In this document: positions 1-9,369 of the stretch, in pieces
Layout of the letters: every line of letters starts with the position of its first letter
How positions within the stretch are numbered: position 1 is the first letter of the stretch
Notes under the pieces: model-generated
Databases searched by the model: none
Told to the model about the DNA's origin: nothing
Seen by the model: the letters and a program-made list of their open reading frames with translations, nothing else
Made by a program: the position numbers and the translations under genes
Assembly (NCBI GenBank): GCA_018240425.1
Contig: JAFEFU010000029.1
Coordinates: 9,460-73,459 of the forward strand
Direction: 5' to 3'
From: Pseudomonadota bacterium
GTDB taxonomy: Bacteria > Pseudomonadota > Alphaproteobacteria > Rhodobacterales > Rhodobacteraceae
DNA length: 64,000 bases

Positions 1-30
1 TACCCTGCACCCCGCAGAGGGAGCCAGTCC

Positions 31-750
31 ATGCGGCTTTTCGTCGGCCTCGGAAATCCGGGGGCAAAGTACGCGGGCAACCGCCACAACGTCGGCTTCA
101 TGGCCCTTGACCGGATCGCCGCCGACCACGGCTTCCCTGCCTTCCGCGCCCGATTCCAGGGCCAGTGCAGCGAGGGCCGTCTTGGCCAGGAACGGGTGAT
201 GCTGCTGAAGCCCGAGACCTTCATGAACCTCTCGGGCCAGTCGGTCGGCGAGGCCATGCGCTACCTGAAGCTCGACCCTTCCGACGTTGTGGTGTTTCAC
301 GACGAACTGGACCTTGCCCCCTTCAAGGTCCGCCTCAAGGATGGCGGCGGCCATGCCGGGCACAATGGCCTGCGCTCGCTCCATGCCCATATCGGCGAGG
401 CCTACCGCCGGGTGCGCATCGGCATCGGCCATCCCGGCCACAAGGACCGGGTGGCCATCTACGTCCTGTCCGATTTCGCCAAGGCCGAAGTGGCTGGCCT
501 TGACGATCTGCTGACCGGGATTTCCGACGGGGCCGCCGCCCTTGCGACCGATGACGACGTGGCCTTCCTGAACGCGGTCGCCCGCCGCACCGCTCCGCCG
601 CGCCCGTCGACCGGCCGACAGGAGAGCGGCAGGAGAGAAGGCGCAGCCCCCGAGGCCGTTCCGCGCCCCGCGGCCACCGCAGCCGCAAACACCAGCCCGC
701 CCGAGGCGCCGGGTCTTCTGCAACGCCTGGCCGAGAGGTTTCGCAAATGA
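31..750 (+). CDS. pth: peptidyl-tRNA hydrolase
   Basis: 239-aa ORF. N-terminus MRLFVGLGNPG..YAGNRHNVGF and the HNGLRS segment are typical of Pth. It has a Pro/Ala-rich C-terminal extension. Confidence 0.95.
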   Translation: MRLFVGLGNPGAKYAGNRHNVGFMALDRIAADHGFPAFRARFQGQCSEGRLGQERVMLLKPETFMNLSGQSVGEAMRYLKLDPSDVVVFHDELDLAPFKVRLKDGGGHAGHNGLRSLHAHIGEAYRRVRIGIGHPGHKDRVAIYVLSDFAKAEVAGLDDLLTGISDGAAALATDDDVAFLNAVARRTAPPRPSTGRQESGRREGAAPEAVPRPAATAAANTSPPEAPGLLQRLAERFRK

Positions 751-1115
751 AGCCGGTACAGTCCGTCAATGTTCTGGGCTCCGCGCTTGCGCCCTGCTCG
801 ACCGCGCCGATGACCGGCTTCTTCCGCGACGGGCACTGCAACACCTGCGCCGAGGATCAGGGCAGCCACACCGTCTGCGTGACAGTCACCGCCGAGTTCC
901 TCGCGCTGTCGAAATACCTCGGCAACGATCTCTCGACCCCGCGGCCCGAATACCGCTTTCCCGGCCTGAAGCCCGGCGACCGCTGGTGCCTGTGCGCGGC
1001 GCGGTTCCTTCAGGCCCATGCCGAAGGCTGCGCGCCCAGGGTCAACCTTGCCGCGACCCATGCCCGCGCGCTCGAGATCGTGCCGCTCGACCTGTTGCGG
1101 GCCTGCGCCGGCTAG
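747..1115 (+). CDS. DUF2237 family protein
   Basis: 122-aa ORF overlapping the pth stop (ATGA). Motifs NVLGSALAPCST..TGFFRDGHCNT..DQGSHTVC..GNDLSTPRPE..GLKPGDRWCLCAARF are characteristic of DUF2237. Confidence 0.85.
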   Translation: MKPVQSVNVLGSALAPCSTAPMTGFFRDGHCNTCAEDQGSHTVCVTVTAEFLALSKYLGNDLSTPRPEYRFPGLKPGDRWCLCAARFLQAHAEGCAPRVNLAATHARALEIVPLDLLRACAG

Positions 1116-1274
1116 ATCAGTTTGCAATTTATCTGACGCAGCGCTAGCCCCGTCCGGTCGCCCAAAGCGACCGGGCCGCGCCGGCCCGCCCCCACGGGGC
1201 GGCGCGATGGCGCCACCCCGCGGGCCGACGCGGCCCTTGGTTGCGCCCGTGATTCACATATAAAGCAAACAGTT

Positions 1275-1799
1275 CTAGCCTGACGCCCGACGGGCGGCCT
1301 CGGCCATCGGTGCCGGCGGGCCATCGTCCATCAGATCCTCGATGAACAGGCTGAGCAACTGCGGGCGCCCGCTGACCCCGGCCTTGCGGTAGATGGCGTT
1401 GGTCTGGGCCTTGACCGTGCCTTCCGCGGTCCTGCGCAGGCTGGCGATTTCGGCGGTGCTCATCCCCTTGATCGCGAACAGCGCCACATCGCGCTCTGAG
1501 GGCGTCAGTTCCCAGTTGGTGAAGCGCTCCTCGAGCAGGTCCATGAAGGCCCCCGAGGCGCGGCGCAGCTTTTCCTCGGCGCGCTGACGTTCCTTCCAGA
1601 AGCGATGCAGCGCCACCGCGCCAAGCACCACCCCGAGGACGAGGCCGAGCGCGGCGCCGATCTCGATATACTCGCGGGTCTGCCAGGCAATCGGATGCGA
1701 GCGGATGCCCAGAACCGAAAACAGGATGTCAGATACGAAAAAGAAGGCGCAGACCGCCTGCACCATCAGGATGGCAAGAACCACAAGACTAGCACGCAT
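1275..1799 (-). CDS. membrane-anchored LuxR/GerE-family HTH transcriptional regulator (two N-terminal TM helices, no sensor domain)
   Basis: C-terminal LTPSERDVALFAIKGMSTAEIA..TVKAQTNAIYRKAGV is a GerE-type HTH. The N-terminus has two hydrophobic helices (LVVLAILMVQAVCAFFFV, IGAALGLVLGVVLGAVAL). The track ORF begins at a TTG (1826); the ATG at 1799 (MRASLVV) is preferred. Confidence 0.8.
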   Translation of the reverse strand: MRASLVVLAILMVQAVCAFFFVSDILFSVLGIRSHPIAWQTREYIEIGAALGLVLGVVLGAVALHRFWKERQRAEEKLRRASGAFMDLLEERFTNWELTPSERDVALFAIKGMSTAEIASLRRTAEGTVKAQTNAIYRKAGVSGRPQLLSLFIEDLMDDGPPAPMAEAARRASG

Positions 1800-1834
1800 G
1801 GACTGCCATCCTGCCCGCCGGATCAACGCTCGCC

Positions 1835-2374
1835 TCAGCCATCATCCGACCCGCCACCACCCGAACCGCCACCCGAACCACCGTGCCCCGACCCGCCGGA
1901 ACCGCTGCCGCCAGAGCCGCTGCCGCCAGAGCCGCTGCCGCCGGAACCGCCAGAACCGCTGCCCGAACCACCGGAACTGCCGCCAGAGCCGCCCGGCGTC
2001 GAACCGGAGCCGTTCGACCCCGAGCTGCTGCTGCCCTTGCCCGAGTTTGACCCGCTGGAACTGTTGTCGTCGGGTTCGGTTGCGTCCAGCGGTTCGGGAA
2101 CAGATCCCGAGGCAGCGGCGCCTCCCGCCCGCGGCTGCCAGTAGTCGCGCAATATCTCGCCGGTTGCCGGATTGACGATGATTTCCCGATCGAAAGCGCG
2201 GTTGTGGGTAACGATCCGCGTCCGGCCCAGCAATGTCCGGCTGACCTCGACATCGACATAGCCCTGATGGGTGAGGTCGGCCAGAATCGCGTCGACCAGG
2301 CTGTCCGGCCAGGCCGGACCGGCCAGCAGCACCCCTGCCAGGCCTGCGGCCATCCGCAAATTCCTGATCTTCAT
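1835..2374 (-). CDS. secreted PepSY-domain protein with long Gly/Ser-rich C-terminal tail
   Basis: Signal-peptide-like MKIRNLRMAAGLAGVLLAGPAWP. PepSY-like core LTHQGYVDVEVSRTLLGRTRIVTHN..REIIVNPATGEILRDYW. The tail is GGSGGSSGGSGSGSGGSGGSG...GHGGSGGGSGGGGSDDG. The start was moved to the ATG at 2374. Confidence 0.7.
   Translation of the reverse strand: MKIRNLRMAAGLAGVLLAGPAWPDSLVDAILADLTHQGYVDVEVSRTLLGRTRIVTHNRAFDREIIVNPATGEILRDYWQPRAGGAAASGSVPEPLDATEPDDNSSSGSNSGKGSSSSGSNGSGSTPGGSGGSSGGSGSGSGGSGGSGSGGSGSGGSGSGGSGHGGSGGGSGGGGSDDG
1902..1946 (-). repeat. 15-nt in-frame tandem repeat (2 identical copies ccgctgccgccagag plus 1 degenerate copy)
   Basis: Read directly: 1902-1916 equals 1917-1931, and 1932-1946 differs at 3 positions. 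The repeat encodes GSGGS-type units of the Gly/Ser tail. Confidence 0.85.
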
Positions 2375-2449
2375 CTTTGCGCCCATTCCCCTCGCGGGCT
2401 CCGGCCCCGGCAATCAACTATTTGCCAGAACCGGGCCCGCGGCAAGCCA

Positions 2450-2863
2450 TCAGCCGGAATTCCCGCCACCGTGGCCGCTGTTGCCACCTCCGCCGCCGCC
2501 GTCATGGCCGGAACTGCCGCCGTGATCGTCGCCGCCGCCATCGTCACTGCCGCCGCGGTCGCCGCCGTTGTCGTCGCCCGGCTCGCTGCCATCGTTGCCG
2601 TTGTCGTCGCCCACCTCCGGGCTGTCGTCGAGGCCCGAGGTCTCCGACTTGACCTGACGGCCGGTGGCGTTGTCGATCGTCACCTCGACCTTCTGCGTGC
2701 CGTTCGTCGCCTCGATCTTCGACGTCGTTACCCCACGGCTGATCTCGATCTTGGTGAAGCCCTGGCTGGCCAGGGCCTGGGCCGCGGCGTCAACCGCGCT
2801 TTGGGCCAGGGCCGCGCTGCCCGTCAGGGCAAGCAGGGCCAGGGCAATGGCTGTCCGTTTCAT
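2450..2863 (-). CDS. secreted PepSY-domain protein with Gly/Asp/His-rich tail
   Basis: GGAG lies 7 nt upstream of the ATG at 2863. Signal peptide MKRTAIALALLALTGSAALA. PepSY-like core LASQGFTKIEISRGVTTSKIEATNGTQKVEVTIDNATGRQV. Tail: DDNGNDGSEPGDDNGGDRGGSDDGGGDDHGGSSGHDGGGGGGNSGHGGGNSG. Confidence 0.7.
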   Translation of the reverse strand: MKRTAIALALLALTGSAALAQSAVDAAAQALASQGFTKIEISRGVTTSKIEATNGTQKVEVTIDNATGRQVKSETSGLDDSPEVGDDNGNDGSEPGDDNGGDRGGSDDGGGDDHGGSSGHDGGGGGGNSGHGGGNSG

Positions 2864-2920
2864 GTTCCACTCCATCCGTTTCTGTGGCGGGGCGCCCCGG
2901 AAGGCGCCCCATGTCCGGTT

Positions 2921-3118
2921 TCACTTGTGGCCCCGGCCATGATGGCCGCGGTCATCGCCCGCCGGGTCGTCGGCGCCATGGCGGGCCAGGACATCGACCT
3001 GGCCGGCAAGCGGCGCGAACATCCTGGTGGCCGATTGGCTGTCCACGGACAGCGGGCTGGCTTGCGCGATGGTGCCAAGGGCAAGAAGGACACCGGAAAG
3101 AAGGACAAGGCGTTTCAT
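2921..3118 (-). CDS. small secreted protein with Asp/His-rich C-terminus
   Basis: 65-aa ORF with AGGAG 7 nt upstream of the ATG. Signal peptide MKRLVLLSGVLLALGTIAQA. C-terminus HGADDPAGDDRGHHGRGHK. Confidence 0.55.
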   Translation of the reverse strand: MKRLVLLSGVLLALGTIAQASPLSVDSQSATRMFAPLAGQVDVLARHGADDPAGDDRGHHGRGHK

Positions 3119-3291
3119 GTCGTTGCTCCTACATGCAAGCGCCGCTTGTCGACGCAGACACAGGACAGCCGACCGGATCGCCGAAGCAAATTGGCCTGGG
3201 GTTTAACCGCCGGGGTCTAAACCCCCAGCCAGTGCGCCTAAACGCAGGTTTATCGGCGCCGCCACCCTGACAGGACGCGCCCGAAAGACCA

Positions 3292-3321
3292 GGGGCGCGG
3301 CCTTTCGACCGCGCCCCTTTT
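3292..3321 (-). terminator. GC-rich hairpin directly downstream of the 3338-3751 gene (possibly bidirectional)
   Basis: ggggcgcgg (3292-3300) pairs with ccgcgcccc (3309-3317) around an 8-nt loop. A TTTT run follows on the plus strand, and a weaker TGGTCTTTC follows on the minus strand. The hairpin starts 17 nt past the stop codon of the minus-strand gene. Confidence 0.5.
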
Positions 3322-3337
3322 CGAAACTCTGGCAGGC

Positions 3338-3751
3338 TTACTTGGTGGCGCCGCCATCACCGCCACCGTCACCGCCGCCGTCGCCACCGTGGTCGCCGCC
3401 GTCGCCACCGTGGTCGCCGCCGCCGTCACCGCCGCCTTCGCCGCCGCTGTGCTCGCCGTCGCCGCCCTGGTCGCCGCCGTGATCGTCGCCGTTCTCGGCG
3501 CCCTGGTCACCACCCTTGTCGTCGCCGTTCTCGGCGCCCTGGTCGCCGCCCTTGCCATCACCGTTCTCGGTGCCCTGGTCGCCGCCCTGGTTGTCGCCGT
3601 TCTCGACGCCGCTGCCCTCGGTGCCGCAGCCGCCGTCGGCCGAGCAGCTCTGCTCGGAGCCGGTCTTTCCATCGGAGCCCTGCTTCTGCTCGGCCATCGC
3701 ATAACCGCCGACCAGCGCCAGCGCCGTCGCCAGGATCAAGGAATATTTCAT
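3338..3751 (-). CDS. secreted Gly/Asp-rich repeat protein (four ENGDxxGGDQGx units plus GDHGGDGG units)
   Basis: GAGGA lies 8 nt upstream of the ATG at 3751. Signal peptide MKYSLILATALALVGGYAMA. The mature part is almost entirely G/D/E/N/Q/H, with 12-aa and 7-aa repeats. Confidence 0.65.
   Translation of the reverse strand: MKYSLILATALALVGGYAMAEQKQGSDGKTGSEQSCSADGGCGTEGSGVENGDNQGGDQGTENGDGKGGDQGAENGDDKGGDQGAENGDDHGGDQGGDGEHSGGEGGGDGGGDHGGDGGDHGGDGGGDGGGDGGATK
3374..3415 (-). repeat. 21-nt perfect tandem duplication (gccgccgtcgccaccgtggtc x2)
   Basis: 3374-3394 and 3395-3415 are identical. Each copy encodes DHGGDGG on the minus strand. Confidence 0.9.
3485..3610 (-). repeat. 36-nt in-frame tandem repeat, 3 full copies plus 1 partial copy
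   Basis: Units 3485-3520, 3521-3556 and 3557-3592 differ at a few positions. A partial fourth copy starts at 3593. They encode the ENGDxxGGDQGx units. Confidence 0.85.
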
Positions 3752-4105
3752 GGTTTCGTCCTCATCATTTGTGTTCGACAAGTGACAGGTCCGACCGGAC
3801 GGGCACTTCGCAGAAACCTCTGGATGCCCGGCAGGATCGCTGCCCGATTGCAGACCGCTGCTTGCGACCTGAGGGGAACTTACGGGCAGACCTGCGGCCA
3901 GAATATGGTGCCGGGTCCGGGTCGGCGGGAAGGCGCCACGGGGATTTGCCGCCTTTTCCGTCCCATCGCCACAAAATTATTTGGCGACTTGCCCTTAACC
4001 CTTGGCAAGAACCCGCCCTTTTTCCGGGGCAGACGCCGGCCGGAGACCCGCGGCTGCCCGGGCCGGGCACGGGGGGGTGCGAATCAATCCGCGGCCCGGG
4101 GCGAA

Positions 4106-5344
4106 TCACCCCTGGATCTTCATGTCGAATCCGAGGTGCCTTGCCACCGTGAAGATGTCCTTGTCGCCGCGCCCGCACATGTTCATGACGATGATATGGT
4201 CCTTCGGCAGCTTGGGCGCGATCTTCATCACATGGGCCAGCGCATGGCTGGGCTCGAGCGCCGGGATGATCCCTTCCAGCTTGCAGCACAGCTGGAACGC
4301 CTCCAGCGCCTCGGCGTCGGTGATGCTGACATACTGCGCGCGTCCGGTGTCGTGCAGCCACGAATGTTCCGGCCCGATGCCGGGATAGTCGAGACCGGCC
4401 GAGATCGAGAAGCCTTCGAGGATCTGCCCGTCCGCGTCCTGCAGCAGATAGGTGCGGTTCCCGTGCAGCACACCGGGCCGCCCGCCGGTGAGGGAGGCGC
4501 AATGCTGCATCCGCTCGTCCACACCCTTGCCGCCGGCCTCGACGCCGATGATCCGAACCGACTTGTCGTCAAGGAACGGATGGAACAGCCCCATCGCGTT
4601 CGACCCGCCGCCAATCGCCGCCACCACCGTGTCGGGCAGGCGGCCCTTGCCTTCCTGTTCCTCAAGCTGCCAGCGCACCTCACGCCCGATGATCGACTGG
4701 AAATCCCGCACCATCGCCGGATAGGGATGCGGCCCCGCCACCGTGCCGATGCAGTAGAACGTGTCGCGCACGTTCGTCACCCAGTCGCGCAAGGCGTCGT
4801 TCATCGCGTCCTTCAGCGTGCCGCGCCCAGAGGTGACGGGGTGCACCTCGGCCCCGAGCAGCCGCATGCGGAACACGTTCGGTGCCTGCCGCTCGACATC
4901 ATGCGCGCCCATGTAGACCACGCACTTCAACCCGAACTTGGCGCAGACCGTGGCCGTCGCCACCCCGTGCTGGCCCGCCCCGGTCTCGGCGATGATCCTT
5001 GTCTTGCCCATGCGGCGGGCGAGGATGATCTGGCCCAGCACGTTGTTGATCTTGTGGGCGCCGGTGTGGTTCAGCTCGTCGCGCTTCATGTAGACCTTGG
5101 CGCCGCCCAGATGCGCCGTCAGCCGCGAGGCGTGATACAGGGGCGAGGGGCGGCCGACGTAGTGCTTCCACAGGTCGTCCATCTCGGCCCAGAAGGTCGG
5201 GTCGGTCTTGGCGTGTTCGTACCGCTCTTCAAGGTCGAGGATCAGCGGCATCAGCGTCTCGGAAACGAACCGCCCGCCGAAATCGCCGAAGCGGCCGTTC
5301 TCGTCCGGCCCGGTCATGAAGCTGTTGATGAGATCCTCGGCCAT
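4106..5344 (-). CDS. trpB: tryptophan synthase beta chain
   Basis: 412-aa ORF with [28 protein letters not shown] and GGGSNAMG motifs. Confidence 0.97.
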
Positions 5345-5345
5345 G

Positions 5346-5987
5346 TCACTTCCCCTGTGCGGCGGCGACGAAGGCCGCGATCAGCCCGCTATCCTTGATT
5401 CCCGGCGCGGTTTCAACGCCCGACGACACATCGACCTGCCGGGCATTGGTGGACCGCACCGCCAGCGCCACGTTGCCGGGTGTGAGCCCCCCGGCCAGCA
5501 TCCAGGGCCGCCGCCAGACCCGGCCCAGAAGCAGCGTCCAGTCGAAGGCAAGGCCGTTGCCGCCCGGCAGCGCCGCGCCCTTCGGAGGCTTCGCGTCGAC
5601 CAGGATCTGGTCGGCCACGCCCTGATAGAGATCCAGCGCTGCAAGGTCGGCGCGTTCGGACAGGCCCACCGCTTTCATCACCGGCAGCCCGTAGCGCGCC
5701 TTGACCTCGGCCACCCGCGCCGGGCTTTCCTTCCCGTGCAGCTGCAGCATGTCGAGAGGAACCGCCTCGGTGATCGCGTCCAGCTCGGCATCGGTGGCAT
5801 CGACGGTCAGGGCCACCTTGGCCACGCCCTGCGGCACCGTCAGGGCAAGCGCGCCGGCGTCGTCCAGCGCCAGATGGCGCGGCGAGCGGGCGAAGAAGAC
5901 GAACCCGACATAGGCCGCGCCGGCCCGCGCCGCCGCCTCGACATGGGCCGCCTCGCGCAGCCCGCAGATCTTCACACGCGTGTCCAT
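5346..5987 (-). CDS. trpF: phosphoribosylanthranilate isomerase
   Basis: 213-aa ORF starting VKICGL and ending in DVSSGVE..PGIKD. It sits immediately upstream of trpB with a 1-nt gap. Confidence 0.93.
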
Positions 5988-6044
5988 TTTCCCGACTTAA
6001 GCCCGGATCGCCCCACTGCATAGCCTTGCGCGGAAAATTCCGGC

Positions 6045-6404
6045 TCAGCCGCCCTTGGGCTTGCCGTCGAGCAGTGACAGAACCTCGTCGGCGGGGGCCT
6101 TCTGCCCGCCCAGCCTGGCCACTTCCCTTTCCAGCCGGCCGACCTGCCGGCGATGGGCCTTCGCATCGCTGCGATGCCGCGACTCGCGCAGCCATTCCCA
6201 GACGAAGCCAAGCGCCAGTCCGGCCAGCATCGCCGCGAAGATGACCAGGAACAGCGGCATCTGCAGCCGCCAGCCGATGCCCAGGAAACGGTCCATCTCG
6301 GGCGGCAGCAGGCTCAGCACCACCGGTTCGCGGTTGGCCCCGGCAAGGGTCAGAAGCACGATCGCCAGGACCAGCAGGAAGAGATAGCGCGCCCAGCGGA
6401 TCAT
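6045..6404 (-). CDS. lapA: LapA-family (DUF1049) inner membrane protein
   Basis: 119-aa ORF with two TM helices and a basic coiled C-terminus. It occupies the conserved position downstream of ihfB. Confidence 0.8.
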   Translation of the reverse strand: MIRWARYLFLLVLAIVLLTLAGANREPVVLSLLPPEMDRFLGIGWRLQMPLFLVIFAAMLAGLALGFVWEWLRESRHRSDAKAHRRQVGRLEREVARLGGQKAPADEVLSLLDGKPKGG

Positions 6405-6414
6405 CGGTTCCCCG

Positions 6415-6696
6415 TCACTCGCCGTTCAGGCGGTCGCGCAAGAGCTTGCCGGTCTTGAAGAAGGGCACATGCTTCTGCTCGACGCTGACCGCCTCGCCGG
6501 TGCGCGGGTTGCGCCCGGCGCGGGCGTCGCGCTTCTTCACCGAGAAAGCGCCAAACCCGCGCAGTTCCACCCGGTCGCCGCGGGCCATCGCCTCGATGAT
6601 CTCCTCGAAGATCGTGTTGACGATCCTTTCCACGTCCCGCTGAAACAGGTGCGGGTTCTCGTCTGAAAGCTTCTGAATAAGTTCGGACCGGATCAT
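6415..6696 (-). CDS. ihfB: integration host factor subunit beta
   Basis: 93-aa [14 protein letters not shown]...[25 protein letters not shown], a classic HU/IHF fold sequence. Confidence 0.95.
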
Positions 6697-6926
6697 TCAT
6701 CCCCCCTGTGACGGCATCATTGTGCCGTCCTCACTTTTCTTCGGGCGGACTATAGGGCCATTTCGGCCGGCGACAAACAGGAAACCCATTGTAAAGGCGC
6801 GGTTTTCCCCGTGAATTCGCGGCGGGCCGCGGGCAGGGCGGCTGCCGCACCCCTGTCGCGGCGCAGCAAAAGCCCGCCGCCGTGCAGAAATCGCCCCGCG
6901 GCGCGAATCGCCCCCGGGCAAAGCAA

Positions 6927-6954
6927 GACCCCGTCCGGCGGACCGGGCGGGGTC
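6927..6954 (-). terminator. putative intrinsic terminator of rpsA
   Basis: The hairpin gaccccg...cggggtc (6927-6954) starts 22 nt past the rpsA stop. On the minus strand it is followed by TTGCTTTGCC. Confidence 0.45.
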
Positions 6955-6975
6955 TGGATCGGCTGTGCCTTGCGC

Positions 6976-8655
6976 TTACTGCTTGGCCTTCAGCGCGGCA
7001 CCGAGGATGTCGCCGAGGCTCGCACCGGAATCCGACGAGCCATACTGTTCGACGGCTTCCTTCTCTTCGGCGATCTCGCGCGCCTTGATCGACAGACCCA
7101 GCTTGCGGGTCTTCGAATCGACGTTGGTGACGCGGACATCGACGTGATCGCCCTTCTGGAAGCGCTCGGGGCGCTGTTCGGCGCGGTCGCGTGACAGGTC
7201 GGACCGGCGGATGAAGGACTTCATGCCGTTGTAGTCCACCTCGATCCCGCCATCCTCGACGGCGGTGACGGTCACGGTGATGACCGAGCCGCGCTTGACC
7301 CCGTCGACCGCGTCCGAGAACGTGTCGGCGTCGAGCGACTTGATCGACAGCGAGATGCGCTCCTTCTCGACATCCACTTCGGTGACGGCGGCCTTGACCA
7401 CGTCGCCCTTGCGGTAGTTCTGGATCGCATCCTCGCCGCGCTGGTCCCAGGACAGGTCCGACAGGTGCACCATGCCGTCGATGTCGTTGTCGAGGCCGAC
7501 GAACAGACCGAATTCGGTGATGTTCTTGACCTCGCCCTCGATGACCGTGCCTTCCGGGTGGGTCTCGGCGAAGACTTCCCACGGGTTGCGCATGGTCTGC
7601 TTCAGGCCCAGCGACACGCGACGCTTGGCGCTGTCAATCTCCAGCACCATGACGTCCACCTCTTGCGAGGTCGAGACGATCTTGCCGGGATGCACGTTCT
7701 TCTTGGTCCAGGACATTTCCGAGACGTGCACCAGGCCCTCGACGCCGGCCTCAAGCTCGACGAACGCGCCGTAGTCGGTGATGTTGGTGACGCGCCCGTG
7801 GTGGACCGAGCCGATCGGGAAGCGGCTTTCGACCGAATCCCACGGGTCGGACTGGAGCTGCTTCATGCCCAGGCTGATGCGGTGGGTTTCCTTGTTGATC
7901 TTGATGACCTGAACCTTGACGGTCTCGCCGATCGACAGGATTTCCGACGGATGGTTGACGCGGCGCCAGGCCATGTCAGTGACATGGAGCAGGCCGTCCA
8001 CGCCGCCCAGATCGACGAACGCACCATATTCGGTGATGTTCTTGACCACGCCATCCACCACCTGACCCTCGGACAGGCTGCCGATGACCTCGGCGCGCTG
8101 CTCGGCGCGGCTCTCCTCGAGGATCGCGCGGCGCGAGACGACGATGTTGCCGCGGCGGCGGTCCATCTTGAGGATCTGGAAGGGCTGCTTCATGCCCATC
8201 AGCGGACCGGCGTCGCGCACCGGGCGCACGTCGACCTGGCTGCCGGGAAGGAAGGCGACCGCGCCGCCCAGATCGACCGTGAAGCCGCCCTTGACCCGGC
8301 CGAAGATGGCGCCATCGACGCGCTCCTCGGCGGCATAGGCTTTCTCCAGACGGTCCCAGGCTTCCTCGCGGCGGGCCTTCTCGCGGCTGATGACCGCTTC
8401 ACCGCGGGCGTTCTCCACGCGATCCAGATAGACCTCGACCTCGTCGCCCACGTTGACGTTGGGCTGTTCGCCGGGGTTCGCGAATTCCTTGAGATCGATG
8501 CGGCCTTCCATCTTGTAGCCGACATCGATGATGGCCTGGCCCGCCTCGATGGCGATGACCTTGCCCTTGACGACCGAACCCTCTTCGGGGGTATCGATCT
8601 CGAAGCTTTCCTTCAGGAGGGCTTCGAATTCGTCCATGGTAGCTTTAGCGCACAT
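6976..8655 (-). CDS. rpsA: 30S ribosomal protein S1
   Basis: 559-aa ORF with six S1 repeats (GKV..I...G.FVD.GG..GL.H.S). The start could be the second Met at 8637. Confidence 0.97.
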
Positions 8656-8781
8656 GCGTGTTCAGTTCCTTTTCATCGGGTTGTTGCTGGCCAAGCGGTT
8701 GGCTCCGCCGGTCTGTGGTTCAAATGCCCAACCGGGCCTCGGCAGCGCCGGACCCGTCGGACCGCGACCGTATAGGCGTGT

Positions 8782-9369
8782 TTAGGCCTTGCGGCAAGGG
8801 TCAATGCGCCGCGCTGGAATCTCCGCAAGTTCCAGCCTGCCCTCGCGGTAACGTCCCCGGATCAGAAGGTCCGACCCCTCGACCTCGGGGTAGTCGGCAC
8901 TCCAGTCGCGGTAGCGGTCGTTGGTCACGATCTGTGCGCCAAGCCCACGCGCGGACCGCAGGATGAATGCATCGGCTGGCGTGCCCTTCGGGACGACAAG
9001 GACGCGGTCCTGGGGCAGATGGAGCCATCGCGCCAGCCGGTGCTCGCCTAAGTATCGCCCTTCAAGCTTGTAGCCCGCATTCGCGTCAAAGACGACCCCG
9101 GGGCTGAACCCGCGCGTGGTCAGCTCCCGGAGGACTTCCATCACCGGTTCTATCCGGGCGGTACCGTCCAGCCAGTGCATGACGTTCGACCCATCGACGA
9201 CAATCCAGCGGGGGTCCGGTCGCCGCCGGAAGATCGGCCAGCCCCAGGCAAGAAAACTGACAGCCGCAAAGGCCAGCGCCGGCAGGATCAGCAGCCGGAA
9301 ATCTGGAAACATCAGCGCGACCATGGCCTGGACAAGCGCGGTCATGAACAGCAAACGGGCAAGACTCAT
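8782..9369 (-). CDS. membrane-anchored Zc3h12a-like NYN/PIN-type ribonuclease domain protein
   Basis: Two N-terminal hydrophobic helices are followed by IVVDGSNVMH, GVVFDAN, VLVVPKGTPADAFILRSA and QIVTNDRYRD. These align motif-for-motif with the MCPIP1/Zc3h12a nuclease core (VVIDGSNVAM..., DDRFIVKLA, VVSNDTYRD). Confidence 0.75.
   Translation of the reverse strand: MSLARLLFMTALVQAMVALMFPDFRLLILPALAFAAVSFLAWGWPIFRRRPDPRWIVVDGSNVMHWLDGTARIEPVMEVLRELTTRGFSPGVVFDANAGYKLEGRYLGEHRLARWLHLPQDRVLVVPKGTPADAFILRSARGLGAQIVTNDRYRDWSADYPEVEGSDLLIRGRYREGRLELAEIPARRIDPCRKA

Follow-up and report, generated by a model that had tools for sequence, protein, structure and literature searches.

Introduction

In Vibrio cholerae, the small Sec-secreted PepSY protein DbfQ is encoded upstream of dbfRS and binds the sensor domain of the kinase DbfS, shifting it to the phosphatase mode (PMC12714742). 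This pair, reported in 2025, was the first in which PepSY proteins were shown to act as direct receptor modulators, and the same work indicates that two-component systems have PepSY genes close by more than 60 times as often as expected by chance and that in Pseudomonas aeruginosa two of them, BqsP and BqsQ (PA2659/PA2658), lie upstream of bqsRS (PMC12714742). Membrane-bound one-component regulators are, for their part, a known and widespread class (PMC10269533). Here we analyse a locus in a 64,000-nucleotide stretch of DNA, hereafter the window, of a Rhodobacteraceae bacterium (GenBank assembly GCA_018240425.1, contig JAFEFU010000029.1), in which small secreted proteins with PepSY-like cores, as judged from remote homology, are encoded just upstream of a transmembrane LuxR-type regulator, which we name E. 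We put at about even the chances that a candidate operator, the genes of the secreted proteins B, C and D and the gene of E form an autoregulated envelope-signalling operon in which E is modulated by the periplasmic PepSY proteins, a reading that leans on the analogy with DbfQ and DbfS.

The locus suggests that the PepSY-modulator principle may operate on a simpler transducer, a membrane LuxR-type factor of about 175 residues without a sensor domain. A search of the literature returned no description of such a two-helix LuxR-type family, of its pairing with PepSY genes, of its operator or of poly-Asp tails such as those carried by its partners, in agreement, within the searchable literature, with the original prediction made on this DNA from the letters alone, according to which no characterised system has this architecture.

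Results and Discussion

The regulator E

Five minus-strand open reading frames (ORFs), named A to E in what follows, lie in a row in positions 1275-3781 of the window, and all of them are found where the original prediction had placed them. Together with the elements identified between them, they are arranged as follows.

1275-1799, minus strand: E, transmembrane LuxR-type regulator, 174 amino acids
1835-2374, minus strand: D, secreted PepSY_2-like protein, 179 amino acids
2450-2863, minus strand: C, secreted PepSY_2-like paralogue of D, 137 amino acids
2921-3118, minus strand: B, small secreted protein, 65 amino acids
3190-3252, minus strand: candidate operator region, with inverted repeat 1 (IR1) at 3239-3252, inverted repeat 2 (IR2) at 3201-3222 and CAAT at 3190-3193
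3291-3318, minus strand: terminator-like hairpin that immediately follows the A stop codon, from RNA folding
3338-3751, minus strand: A, secreted low-complexity Gly/Asp protein, 137 amino acids

Within E, the following parts are predicted.

Residues ~5-28: first transmembrane helix (TM1)
Between TM1 and TM2: loop of ~16 amino acids
Following the loop, up to residue 95: second transmembrane helix (TM2), then a cytoplasmic helix
Residues 98-157: GerE/LuxR helix-turn-helix (HTH)

The C-terminal part of E matches the Pfam family GerE (PF00196) over residues 98-150 with 28.1 bits, above the cut-off of 23.5, and the AlphaFold2 (AF2) model, obtained from 18 sequences with a predicted local distance difference test (pLDDT) score of 79.6, consists of a helix at residues 2-29, a short loop, a continuous helix at residues 39-95 and a four-helix DNA-binding bundle. 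When compared by Foldseek with the DNA-binding domains of VraR, RcsB, LiaR, NarL, GerE and DosR, the C-terminus superposes with root mean square deviations of 0.8-2.2 Å over 51-60 residues (probability 1.00); E thus combines a Pfam score above threshold with the four-helix fold of the LuxR/NarL type, the two features by which a LuxR/GerE HTH is recognised. No domain besides GerE was found in E by the Pfam and NCBIfam searches. The combination of a GerE/LuxR HTH with two transmembrane helices, and with no receiver, autoinducer-binding or other sensor domain, as originally predicted, is therefore borne out by Pfam, NCBIfam, AF2 and Foldseek alike. From hydropathy, the AF2 helices and the positive-inside charges, both termini are predicted to be cytoplasmic and the loop of about 16 residues to be periplasmic; a strongly positive segment, HRFWKERQRAEEKLRR, follows TM2. 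In respect to the class of transmembrane transcription regulators, defined by a DNA-binding domain and at least one transmembrane region (PMC10269533), E qualifies by its GerE HTH and its two predicted transmembrane helices.

Across 18 homologues, the residues Q14, C17, F20-S23 and I25 of TM1 are invariant and D24 is nearly so (FFVSD24); G31, P36, W39 and E43 are invariant in the loop, and so are, in TM2, E46 and a glycine zipper formed by G48/G52/G56/G60. Conservation in the membrane part equals that in the HTH, a degree that argues for more than a mere anchoring role.

Two familiar assignments of LuxR-type proteins were considered and rejected. E is not a quorum-sensing LuxR receptor, as it has no autoinducer-binding domain and its 95 N-terminal residues are accounted for by the two transmembrane helices and a stalk helix; nor is it a response regulator of the NarL/FixJ type, since the NCBIfam response-regulator models match its HTH part only (residues ~80-155) and a receiver was not found. 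With ToxR/ToxS, TcpP/TcpH, VtrA/VtrC and CadC the locus shares a membrane-held transcription factor with a co-encoded periplasmic partner and a one-component design with no phosphotransfer. However, those regulators have an N-terminal winged helix of the OmpR type, one transmembrane helix and a folded periplasmic domain, whereas E has two transmembrane helices, no periplasmic domain and a C-terminal HTH of the LuxR/NarL type, and its partners are PepSY proteins rather than barrels of the ToxS/VtrC type. The ToxR/CadC-style architecture put forward in the original prediction does not hold for a protein with a C-terminal LuxR HTH, two transmembrane helices and a periplasmic loop of about 16 residues. 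The intramembrane-sensing kinases of Firmicutes, BceS (with BceAB) and LiaS (with LiaF), have two transmembrane helices and a minimal external loop, cannot bind ligands on their own and take their input from a partner protein; unlike these two-component kinases, E is itself the DNA-binding output.

Spread of the E family

A profile search of 1.84 billion cluster representatives gave 191 matches at an E-value of 1e-30 or below and 1,609 at 1e-10 or below, and most of the top matches span the transmembrane part as well as the HTH. Twenty distant members have the same architecture and carry the Q..C..FF..D and E motifs, and the source annotations of the family read 'helix-turn-helix transcriptional regulator' or 'CsgD family' only. 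Judged by profile and motifs, E is a member of a large family, of about 1,600 clusters, of LuxR-type transmembrane regulators of about 175 residues with two predicted membrane helices. An E homologue turned up in at least 578 species when one genome per species was scanned, and the 80 best loci were retrieved; the nearest relatives of E come from Paracoccaceae (Tabrizicola, Frigidibacter, Rhodobacter), and the module is also found in the marine model Ruegeria pomeroyi.

The LIC13292 family (NCBIfam NF047608, a 166-position model that bears a gene name of Leptospira interrogans) is similar in length to the E family and is matched by all 21 E-family members tested, with 59 bits for E itself and a best E-value of 9.9e-20 among the 21; the alignment of one of these members, P0287, to this model (54.5 bits) runs over positions 5-162 and includes the N-terminal region. 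However, scores of 54-59 bits are far under the curated cut-off of 200 bits, and membership in this family was rejected. A literature search for LIC13292 found no paper, and the name brings no known function.

Linkage of E with PepSY genes

The original prediction had called for a test of linkage between the membrane LuxR gene and secreted genes of the PepSY type in related genomes, and such a linkage is indeed observed, both within Rhodobacterales and outside this order. In about 77 of the 80 Rhodobacterales species loci, the gene directly upstream of E is a homologue of D, with D-E gaps that are mostly of 13-130 nt and an overlap of 1 nt in Loktanella, and about 54 of the 80 also have a homologue of C upstream of D; Ruegeria pomeroyi and Celeribacter have the same arrangement. 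The wider neighbourhood, rpsA-ihfB-trpF-trpB...DUF2237-pth, is also syntenic in Rhodobacterales, and as it is conserved too, functional linkage and inherited gene order are inseparable within this order.

We have thus considered loci from outside Rhodobacterales, comprising the genomic contexts of relatives of one distant E member and the results of a metagenome scan with a second distant subgroup (4 sequences). In Roseitalea, a PepSY_2 gene is followed by E beside the genes of EPSP synthase and histidinol dehydrogenase, and in Labrenzia E is placed between two PepSY_2 genes. In one large contig and about 20 metagenome loci (within L095-L118) the order is PepSY_2 (82-94 amino acids), cytochrome b561 (PF01292, 73-84 bits) and E, usually with a secreted SLT-domain transglycosylase of about 200 amino acids thereafter. 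Overall, 23 of the 27 non-redundant distant loci, each with at least 1 kb of upstream sequence available, have a PepSY-type gene in the same orientation as E and no more than 1.3 kb from it. The PepSY partners in these clades are proteins of 82-110 amino acids that have no low-complexity tail and score above the Pfam threshold. Since the flanking genes are completely different from those of the Rhodobacterales neighbourhood, the pairing of PepSY with E is kept by selection rather than by inherited order, and this is the principal argument in favour of the inference made in the original prediction.

This evidence bears on a reading that we regard as highly improbable and that is largely refuted, namely that the association reflects inherited gene order only, or that the low-complexity ORFs are not genes and the opposite-strand frames, rich in Pro and Glu, are the ones that are read. 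Its first half draws on the synteny of the whole neighbourhood just described and is opposed by the recurrence of the PepSY-E adjacency in unrelated genomic contexts; its second half draws on the long antisense ORFs that overlap the tails. However, the tails are in frame with conserved signal and PepSY domains in at least 70 species. Moreover, all periods of the tandem repeats in the low-complexity tails are divisible by 3: a 36-nt repeat in A (3459-3610, 4.2 copies, 83% matches and no indels), which corresponds to a 12-residue ENGDxxGGDQGx unit, a 21-nt repeat in A (3361-3431, 3.4 copies of a 7-residue unit) and a 15-nt repeat in the D tail (1893-1950, 3.9 copies). The same is true of the only difference that separates the 2.7 kb of the whole module from the nearly identical contig L001 of the metagenome-assembled genome GCA_018240385.1, a single in-frame gap of 15 nt that corresponds to one GSGSG unit of the D tail (window 1893-1950, L001 5408-5932) and that points to repeat slippage and to a length polymorphism within one population. 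The antisense ORF at 3389-5398, in turn, extends through trpB and is clearly spurious. The frequency of G or C at third codon positions (GC3) is 0.74-0.86 in the annotated frames, against 0.87-0.90 in trpF and trpB. On these features of the sequence, and as over 70 species keep the tails in one frame with a conserved N-terminal signal and domain, the low-complexity ORFs are genuine minus-strand coding sequences, and the long antisense ORFs are shadows; the objection that the repeats might be read in the opposite frame, which the original prediction had itself raised, is rejected on account of the repeat periods, the in-frame tails and the antisense ORF that runs through trpB.

The neighbours of E in the distant loci hint at a redox- or metal-related signal, and in its strongest form this view holds that E reads a membrane redox partner in the sensing of periplasmic redox state or metal reduction, that the PepSY protein handles Fe or Cu and that Rhodobacterales have lost the cytochrome. 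The cytochrome b561 gene that stands between PepSY_2 and E in about 20 distant loci is in its favour, as are a gene of a ferric-reductase/FAD/NAD protein found directly upstream of E in Lentilitoribacter (L092), where it takes the place of the PepSY_2 and cytochrome b561 genes and there is no PepSY gene, and the Fer4_5 and iron-transport (PF10634) genes downstream in locus L095. Metal-binding PepSY proteins are also known, such as LanP (lanpepsy; PMC9988556) and, as cited in PMC12714742, UipA. These are secreted PepSY-domain proteins implicated in the binding of polyvalent metal ions, but they are built with a pair of PepSY domains or with a membrane anchor, and their folded domains bind the metal, whereas in the present case there is a single small core with a low-complexity tail. 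Set against this view, no cytochrome or reductase gene is present in the module of the window or in the Rhodobacterales loci read in detail, and a metal-binding motif in C and D is still only supposed. We consider it rather improbable as a separate account; it is also compatible with the envelope-signalling operon proposed above.

Among the distant loci, a recurring plus-strand ORF-like translation (MEPLRRYCSAILARxSLKIATECHSVRSLRSPE...) was noted in L116, L119-L122 and L099-L115, where it precedes either E or the PepSY gene; probably it either mirrors, in antisense, a conserved gene of the minus strand or belongs to a non-coding element that is conserved.

The PepSY-like cores of C and D

The two proteins encoded directly upstream of E have the following predicted parts.

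D: signal peptide; core at residues 23-81, with the motif RTLLGRTRI...REIIVNPATGEILRD; disordered Gly/Ser-rich tail of ~100 amino acids ending in DDG
C: Sec-type signal (ALA/QS); PepSY-like core at residues ~22-74; acidic Gly/Asp/His/Asn tail

Neither of them reaches the Pfam gathering thresholds for PepSY (PF03413; 24 bits) or PepSY_2 (PF13670; 24.3 bits). Window C matches the former with an E-value of 0.075 (13.8 bits) and the latter with an E-value of 0.16 (12.5 bits), no PepSY or PepSY_2 match was returned by Pfam for window D, and 8 of 24 D homologues match PepSY_2 under threshold (best E-value 0.0027). Profile comparisons are more informative: aligned with hhalign, a profile of 54 C-type N-terminal regions matches a profile of 72 D-type ones with a probability of 99.1% and an E-value of 1.5e-18. 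With an E-value of 1.6e-10 the C profile also picks up the small PepSY proteins encoded in other clades, which themselves score 41-62 bits on PF13670, and in the reverse direction a profile made from those proteins returns window C at 1.8e-4. In the AF2 model of D, residues 23-81 fold into one helix plus four strands (pLDDT of about 96) and are followed by a tail of about 100 residues with a pLDDT of about 50, and the helix with four strands is what we take to be the PepSY topology. A sequence search of the PDB with the D profile gave no meaningful match. The PepSY-like core that the original prediction had recognised in two of the proteins stays under the Pfam thresholds, whereas remote homology and a confident alpha-plus-four-beta model are in agreement with it and the Foldseek comparison of D given below speaks against it; C and D are paralogues that we call PepSY_2-like, as is probable from remote homology, while by the Pfam criterion they are not members.

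Candidate operator and operon

Upstream of B lie two inverted repeats of the same half-sites. IR1 is TAAAC-CTGC-GTTTA in the window, at 3239-3252, and takes the form (G)C(A/C)TAAAC-N4-GTTTA(T/G)G in the family, while IR2 is GTTTA-N12-TAAAC, about 21 bp after IR1 (3201-3222), with the family form GGTTTA-N12-TAAACC; a conserved GGTCAAT box follows IR2, of which the window has CAAT at 3190-3193. TAAAC-N4-GTTTA has one match in the 64-kb window even when one mismatch is allowed, against 0.02 expected. Among the fetched loci, 73 carry the motif; where its position was checked, the PepSY module begins downstream of it, and the consensus of 76 sites reads gCaTAAACt..gGTTTA.g...GGt.tA...tAAaCc...gg.caaT. 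In 8 loci there are two copies of the motif; most of these loci carry two PepSY units, and where this was checked each copy precedes one unit. Some distant clades have degenerate versions (AAAC-N4-GTT, CAATGG) ahead of their PepSY gene.

The 20-bp palindrome fits binding by a dimeric HTH of the LuxR/NarL type, and E is the candidate binder of the operator, as it is the only regulator that travels with it. A scan with consensus promoters found no sigma-70-like promoter. The gaps between B and C, C and D, and D and E are of 57, 75 and 35 nt, respectively, with no terminator between the genes, and B, C, D and E most likely constitute, as judged from this layout, one autoregulated operon. The conserved unit, made of the operator, B, C, D and E, is therefore smaller than the five genes initially considered.

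A further arrangement was observed in loci L045, L063, L064, L070, L074 and L082, which have an extra gene of the D type with an operator of its own between trpB and the main module; the tail that it encodes is rich in Pro and Thr and is not acidic.

Tails and export signals

The low-complexity tails composed of Gly, Asp, Ser and His that had been described initially are real, as are their repeats, with the exception that the tail of D has another composition, being rich in Gly and Ser with 7% acidic residues and 1% His. Indeed, 74% of the D tail in the window is Gly, Ser or Asn, while 25% of the C tail is acidic. Across species, D-type tails have a median length of 70 amino acids and a median Asp plus Glu content of 38%, and C-type tails of 88 amino acids and 51%, both with DDD as the typical ending, and Gly, Ser, Asn, (RG)n and NSGxGGG elements are scattered through them. 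The tails are thus mostly poly-Asp in the family, and not of the Gly/His kind, and D of this organism departs from the rule; they are kept as a feature and not as a sequence. Metal binding by poly-Asp tails of this composition is plausible. In many tails and first-position proteins, (RG)n runs abut acidic runs, as in GRGRGRGRGGDD, and NSGxGGG elements recur.

Signal-peptide-like N-termini, attributed in the original prediction to all four proteins encoded upstream of E, are visible in A, B and C, whose sequences can be read to contain cleavage sites of the AxA type (AMA/EQ, AQA/SP and ALA/QS, respectively), and less canonical for D (AGPAWP/DS). A twin-arginine motif (RRx and two hydrophobic residues, typically MKRRxFL, in the first 20 residues) is present in 50 of 72 D-type proteins versus 1 of 54 C-type ones, which suggests that in most species the two are probably exported by separate routes, the D type via Tat and the C type via Sec.

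Proposed mechanism

The closest parallel to this organisation is offered by DbfQ-DbfRS and BqsPQ-BqsRS, in which, as in our case, one or two small secreted PepSY genes lie just upstream of a membrane transducer and in the same orientation, with apparent self-regulation; two PepSY paralogues are present, as for BqsP and BqsQ in P. aeruginosa. The differences are nevertheless substantial, since the transducer is a single LuxR-type protein with two transmembrane helices rather than a histidine kinase with a response regulator, and E offers no periplasmic sensor domain on which a PepSY protein could dock, only the loop of about 16 residues; in addition, the Rhodobacterales PepSY proteins have long disordered acidic tails and those of the D type usually a twin-arginine signal. 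A DbfQRS-like module as such was rejected, given that no kinase or receiver gene is present at the locus, which is flanked by trpB/trpF and DUF2237/pth.

In the mechanism that we propose, E would dimerise through the glycine zipper of TM2 and the stalk helix, and the dimer would bind the two inverted repeats of TAAAC/GTTTA half-sites upstream of the operon, thereby regulating its own expression. As E has no sensor domain, its state would be set by the periplasmic PepSY proteins: the secreted C and D would determine its activity from the periplasm by touching the short loop or the transmembrane helices, in a way comparable to the action of DbfQ on DbfS. Through their disordered tails, poly-Asp in the majority of species, the PepSY proteins would respond to some condition in the periplasm, for which polyvalent cations or envelope charge are our leading guess.

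The main rival is a distinct scenario in which the PepSY and acidic proteins are output only, and E senses a membrane-intrinsic cue via Q14, C17, D24, E43 and E46 and induces them as effectors, such as periplasmic cation buffers or polyanions that protect the envelope. Several observations would be expected from it, such as a transmembrane region conserved as strongly as the HTH, one operator copy for each PepSY unit, as is the case for regulated targets, the existence of E homologues with no PepSY neighbour, and a tail composition that varies freely, as would that of bulk polyanions. However, PepSY genes next to a sensor-less membrane transducer correspond to the pattern of DbfQRS and BqsPQRS, where the PepSY protein is the direct modulator, and the tail-less partners outside Rhodobacterales stay linked to E, which argues that the conserved partner is the PepSY domain and not a polyanion effector. 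We consider this output-only scenario possible, if on the unlikely side.

Returning to PepSY proteins as modulators of E, a number of points weigh against this proposal. The binding of E to the operator is suggested only by their co-occurrence, the contact between PepSY proteins and E only by the analogy with DbfQ and DbfS, and sequence does not fix the direction in which information flows between the two. No PepSY gene is found in 4 of the 27 distant loci, one of which has a gene of the ferric-reductase type instead. Foldseek comparison of the full-length D model with the PDB gave nothing significant (best E-value 0.07), probably due to the fact that the core has only about 59 residues and that the disordered tail was included; a lipoprotein of Clostridioides difficile, 4exr, which we assume to be PepSY-like, appeared at an E-value of 0.17, which is not significant. 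Finally, the idea of metal binding by the tails is weakest for D of the window, with its 7% of acidic residues, so that a cation-sensing role of the tail would be weak in this organism, and the start of this protein, MKIRNLRMAAGL (MKIRNLRM...), has no RR and thus lacks the twin-arginine motif of most of its homologues.

Tentatively, and with less assurance than for the operon itself, the proposal may be extended to the whole family, about 1,600 clusters at 50% identity from Alphaproteobacteria with distant relatives in Leptospira: these two-helix LuxR-type proteins would take their input from secreted PepSY proteins, to which some clades would add a protein of the cytochrome b561 or ferric-reductase type, as a one-component counterpart of the PepSY-controlled two-component systems, and the poly-Asp tails of Rhodobacterales would serve as sensors of polyvalent cations or envelope charge. 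If true, this would give a function to many genes now annotated as 'helix-turn-helix transcriptional regulator' or 'hypothetical protein', would extend the PepSY-modulator concept from two-component to one-component signalling and would make it a testable question what disordered poly-Asp tails do on proteins of the periplasm. At least 578 species carry the module, with generic annotation throughout, and its clear candidate operator makes it directly testable.

A and B, translation signals and neighbouring genes

The original prediction had counted A in one group with the other four genes. This is not sustained, as only B, C and D lie on the same side of the operator as E, and A is a separate unit. 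The hairpin that follows A (3291-3318) has a G+C-rich stem of 12 bp and a GAAA loop and is followed by UGGUCUUU; its computed folding energy is -36.9 kcal/mol (z-score -3.0, with 1 of 200 shuffled sequences as stable), and it is this folding that reveals it, since a scan for consensus terminators did not flag it. A has no family match in Pfam, NCBIfam or PADLOC, its GC3 is 0.86, and its only tblastn matches among the fetched loci are in L001 and L002, contigs that are identical to the window. Given that the operator lies downstream of it, that a terminator hairpin of its own follows it and that no other species fetched was found to have it, we treat A as a secreted low-complexity protein whose gene is a lineage-specific insertion, outside the conserved module.

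B ends in an Asp/Gly/His/Arg motif (ARHGADDPAGDDRGHHGRGHK) and has a weak homologue in one other locus, L012, at the same position and with 35% identity. The first gene of the operon in Ruegeria pomeroyi (L086, 5459-5908) encodes four copies of GGRGRGGDDGADHDAGDDH, in a protein with a composition like that of B and with no PepSY core. Placed between the operator and C, B is an addition specific to its clade, and belongs to a loose group of small secreted proteins with Asp/Gly/His/Arg repeats that head the operon in some species (L012 and Ruegeria pomeroyi).

As to translation signals, reading of the sequence places AGGAG 7 nt before the ATG at 3118 (B), GGAG 6 nt before that at 2863 (C), GAGGA 7 nt before that at 3751 (A) and AGGA 9 nt before that at 1799 (E), while for D (ATG at 2374) the sole sequence of this kind is a distant GAGG. 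The convincing Shine-Dalgarno sites that had been claimed for all four upstream ORFs are thus confirmed, to within one base, for the named sites of A, B and C, and not for D.

An Rfam scan of window positions 1-9000 found no RNA family, and PADLOC found no relation of the locus proteins to defence systems, its sole match being that of a CARF-associated HTH to the HTH of E. The locus is flanked on one side by pth and a DUF2237 gene (31-1115, plus strand) and on the other by trpB, trpF, a LapA-domain gene, ihfB and rpsA (4106-8655, minus strand). The DUF2237 gene (747-1115 in the window, plus strand) is convergent with E in almost every Rhodobacterales locus, which is probably a matter of synteny only, and it sometimes overlaps the 3' end of E, as in L086 (7014-7391, with E at 6508-7035); this convergent overlap could be of relevance to termination.

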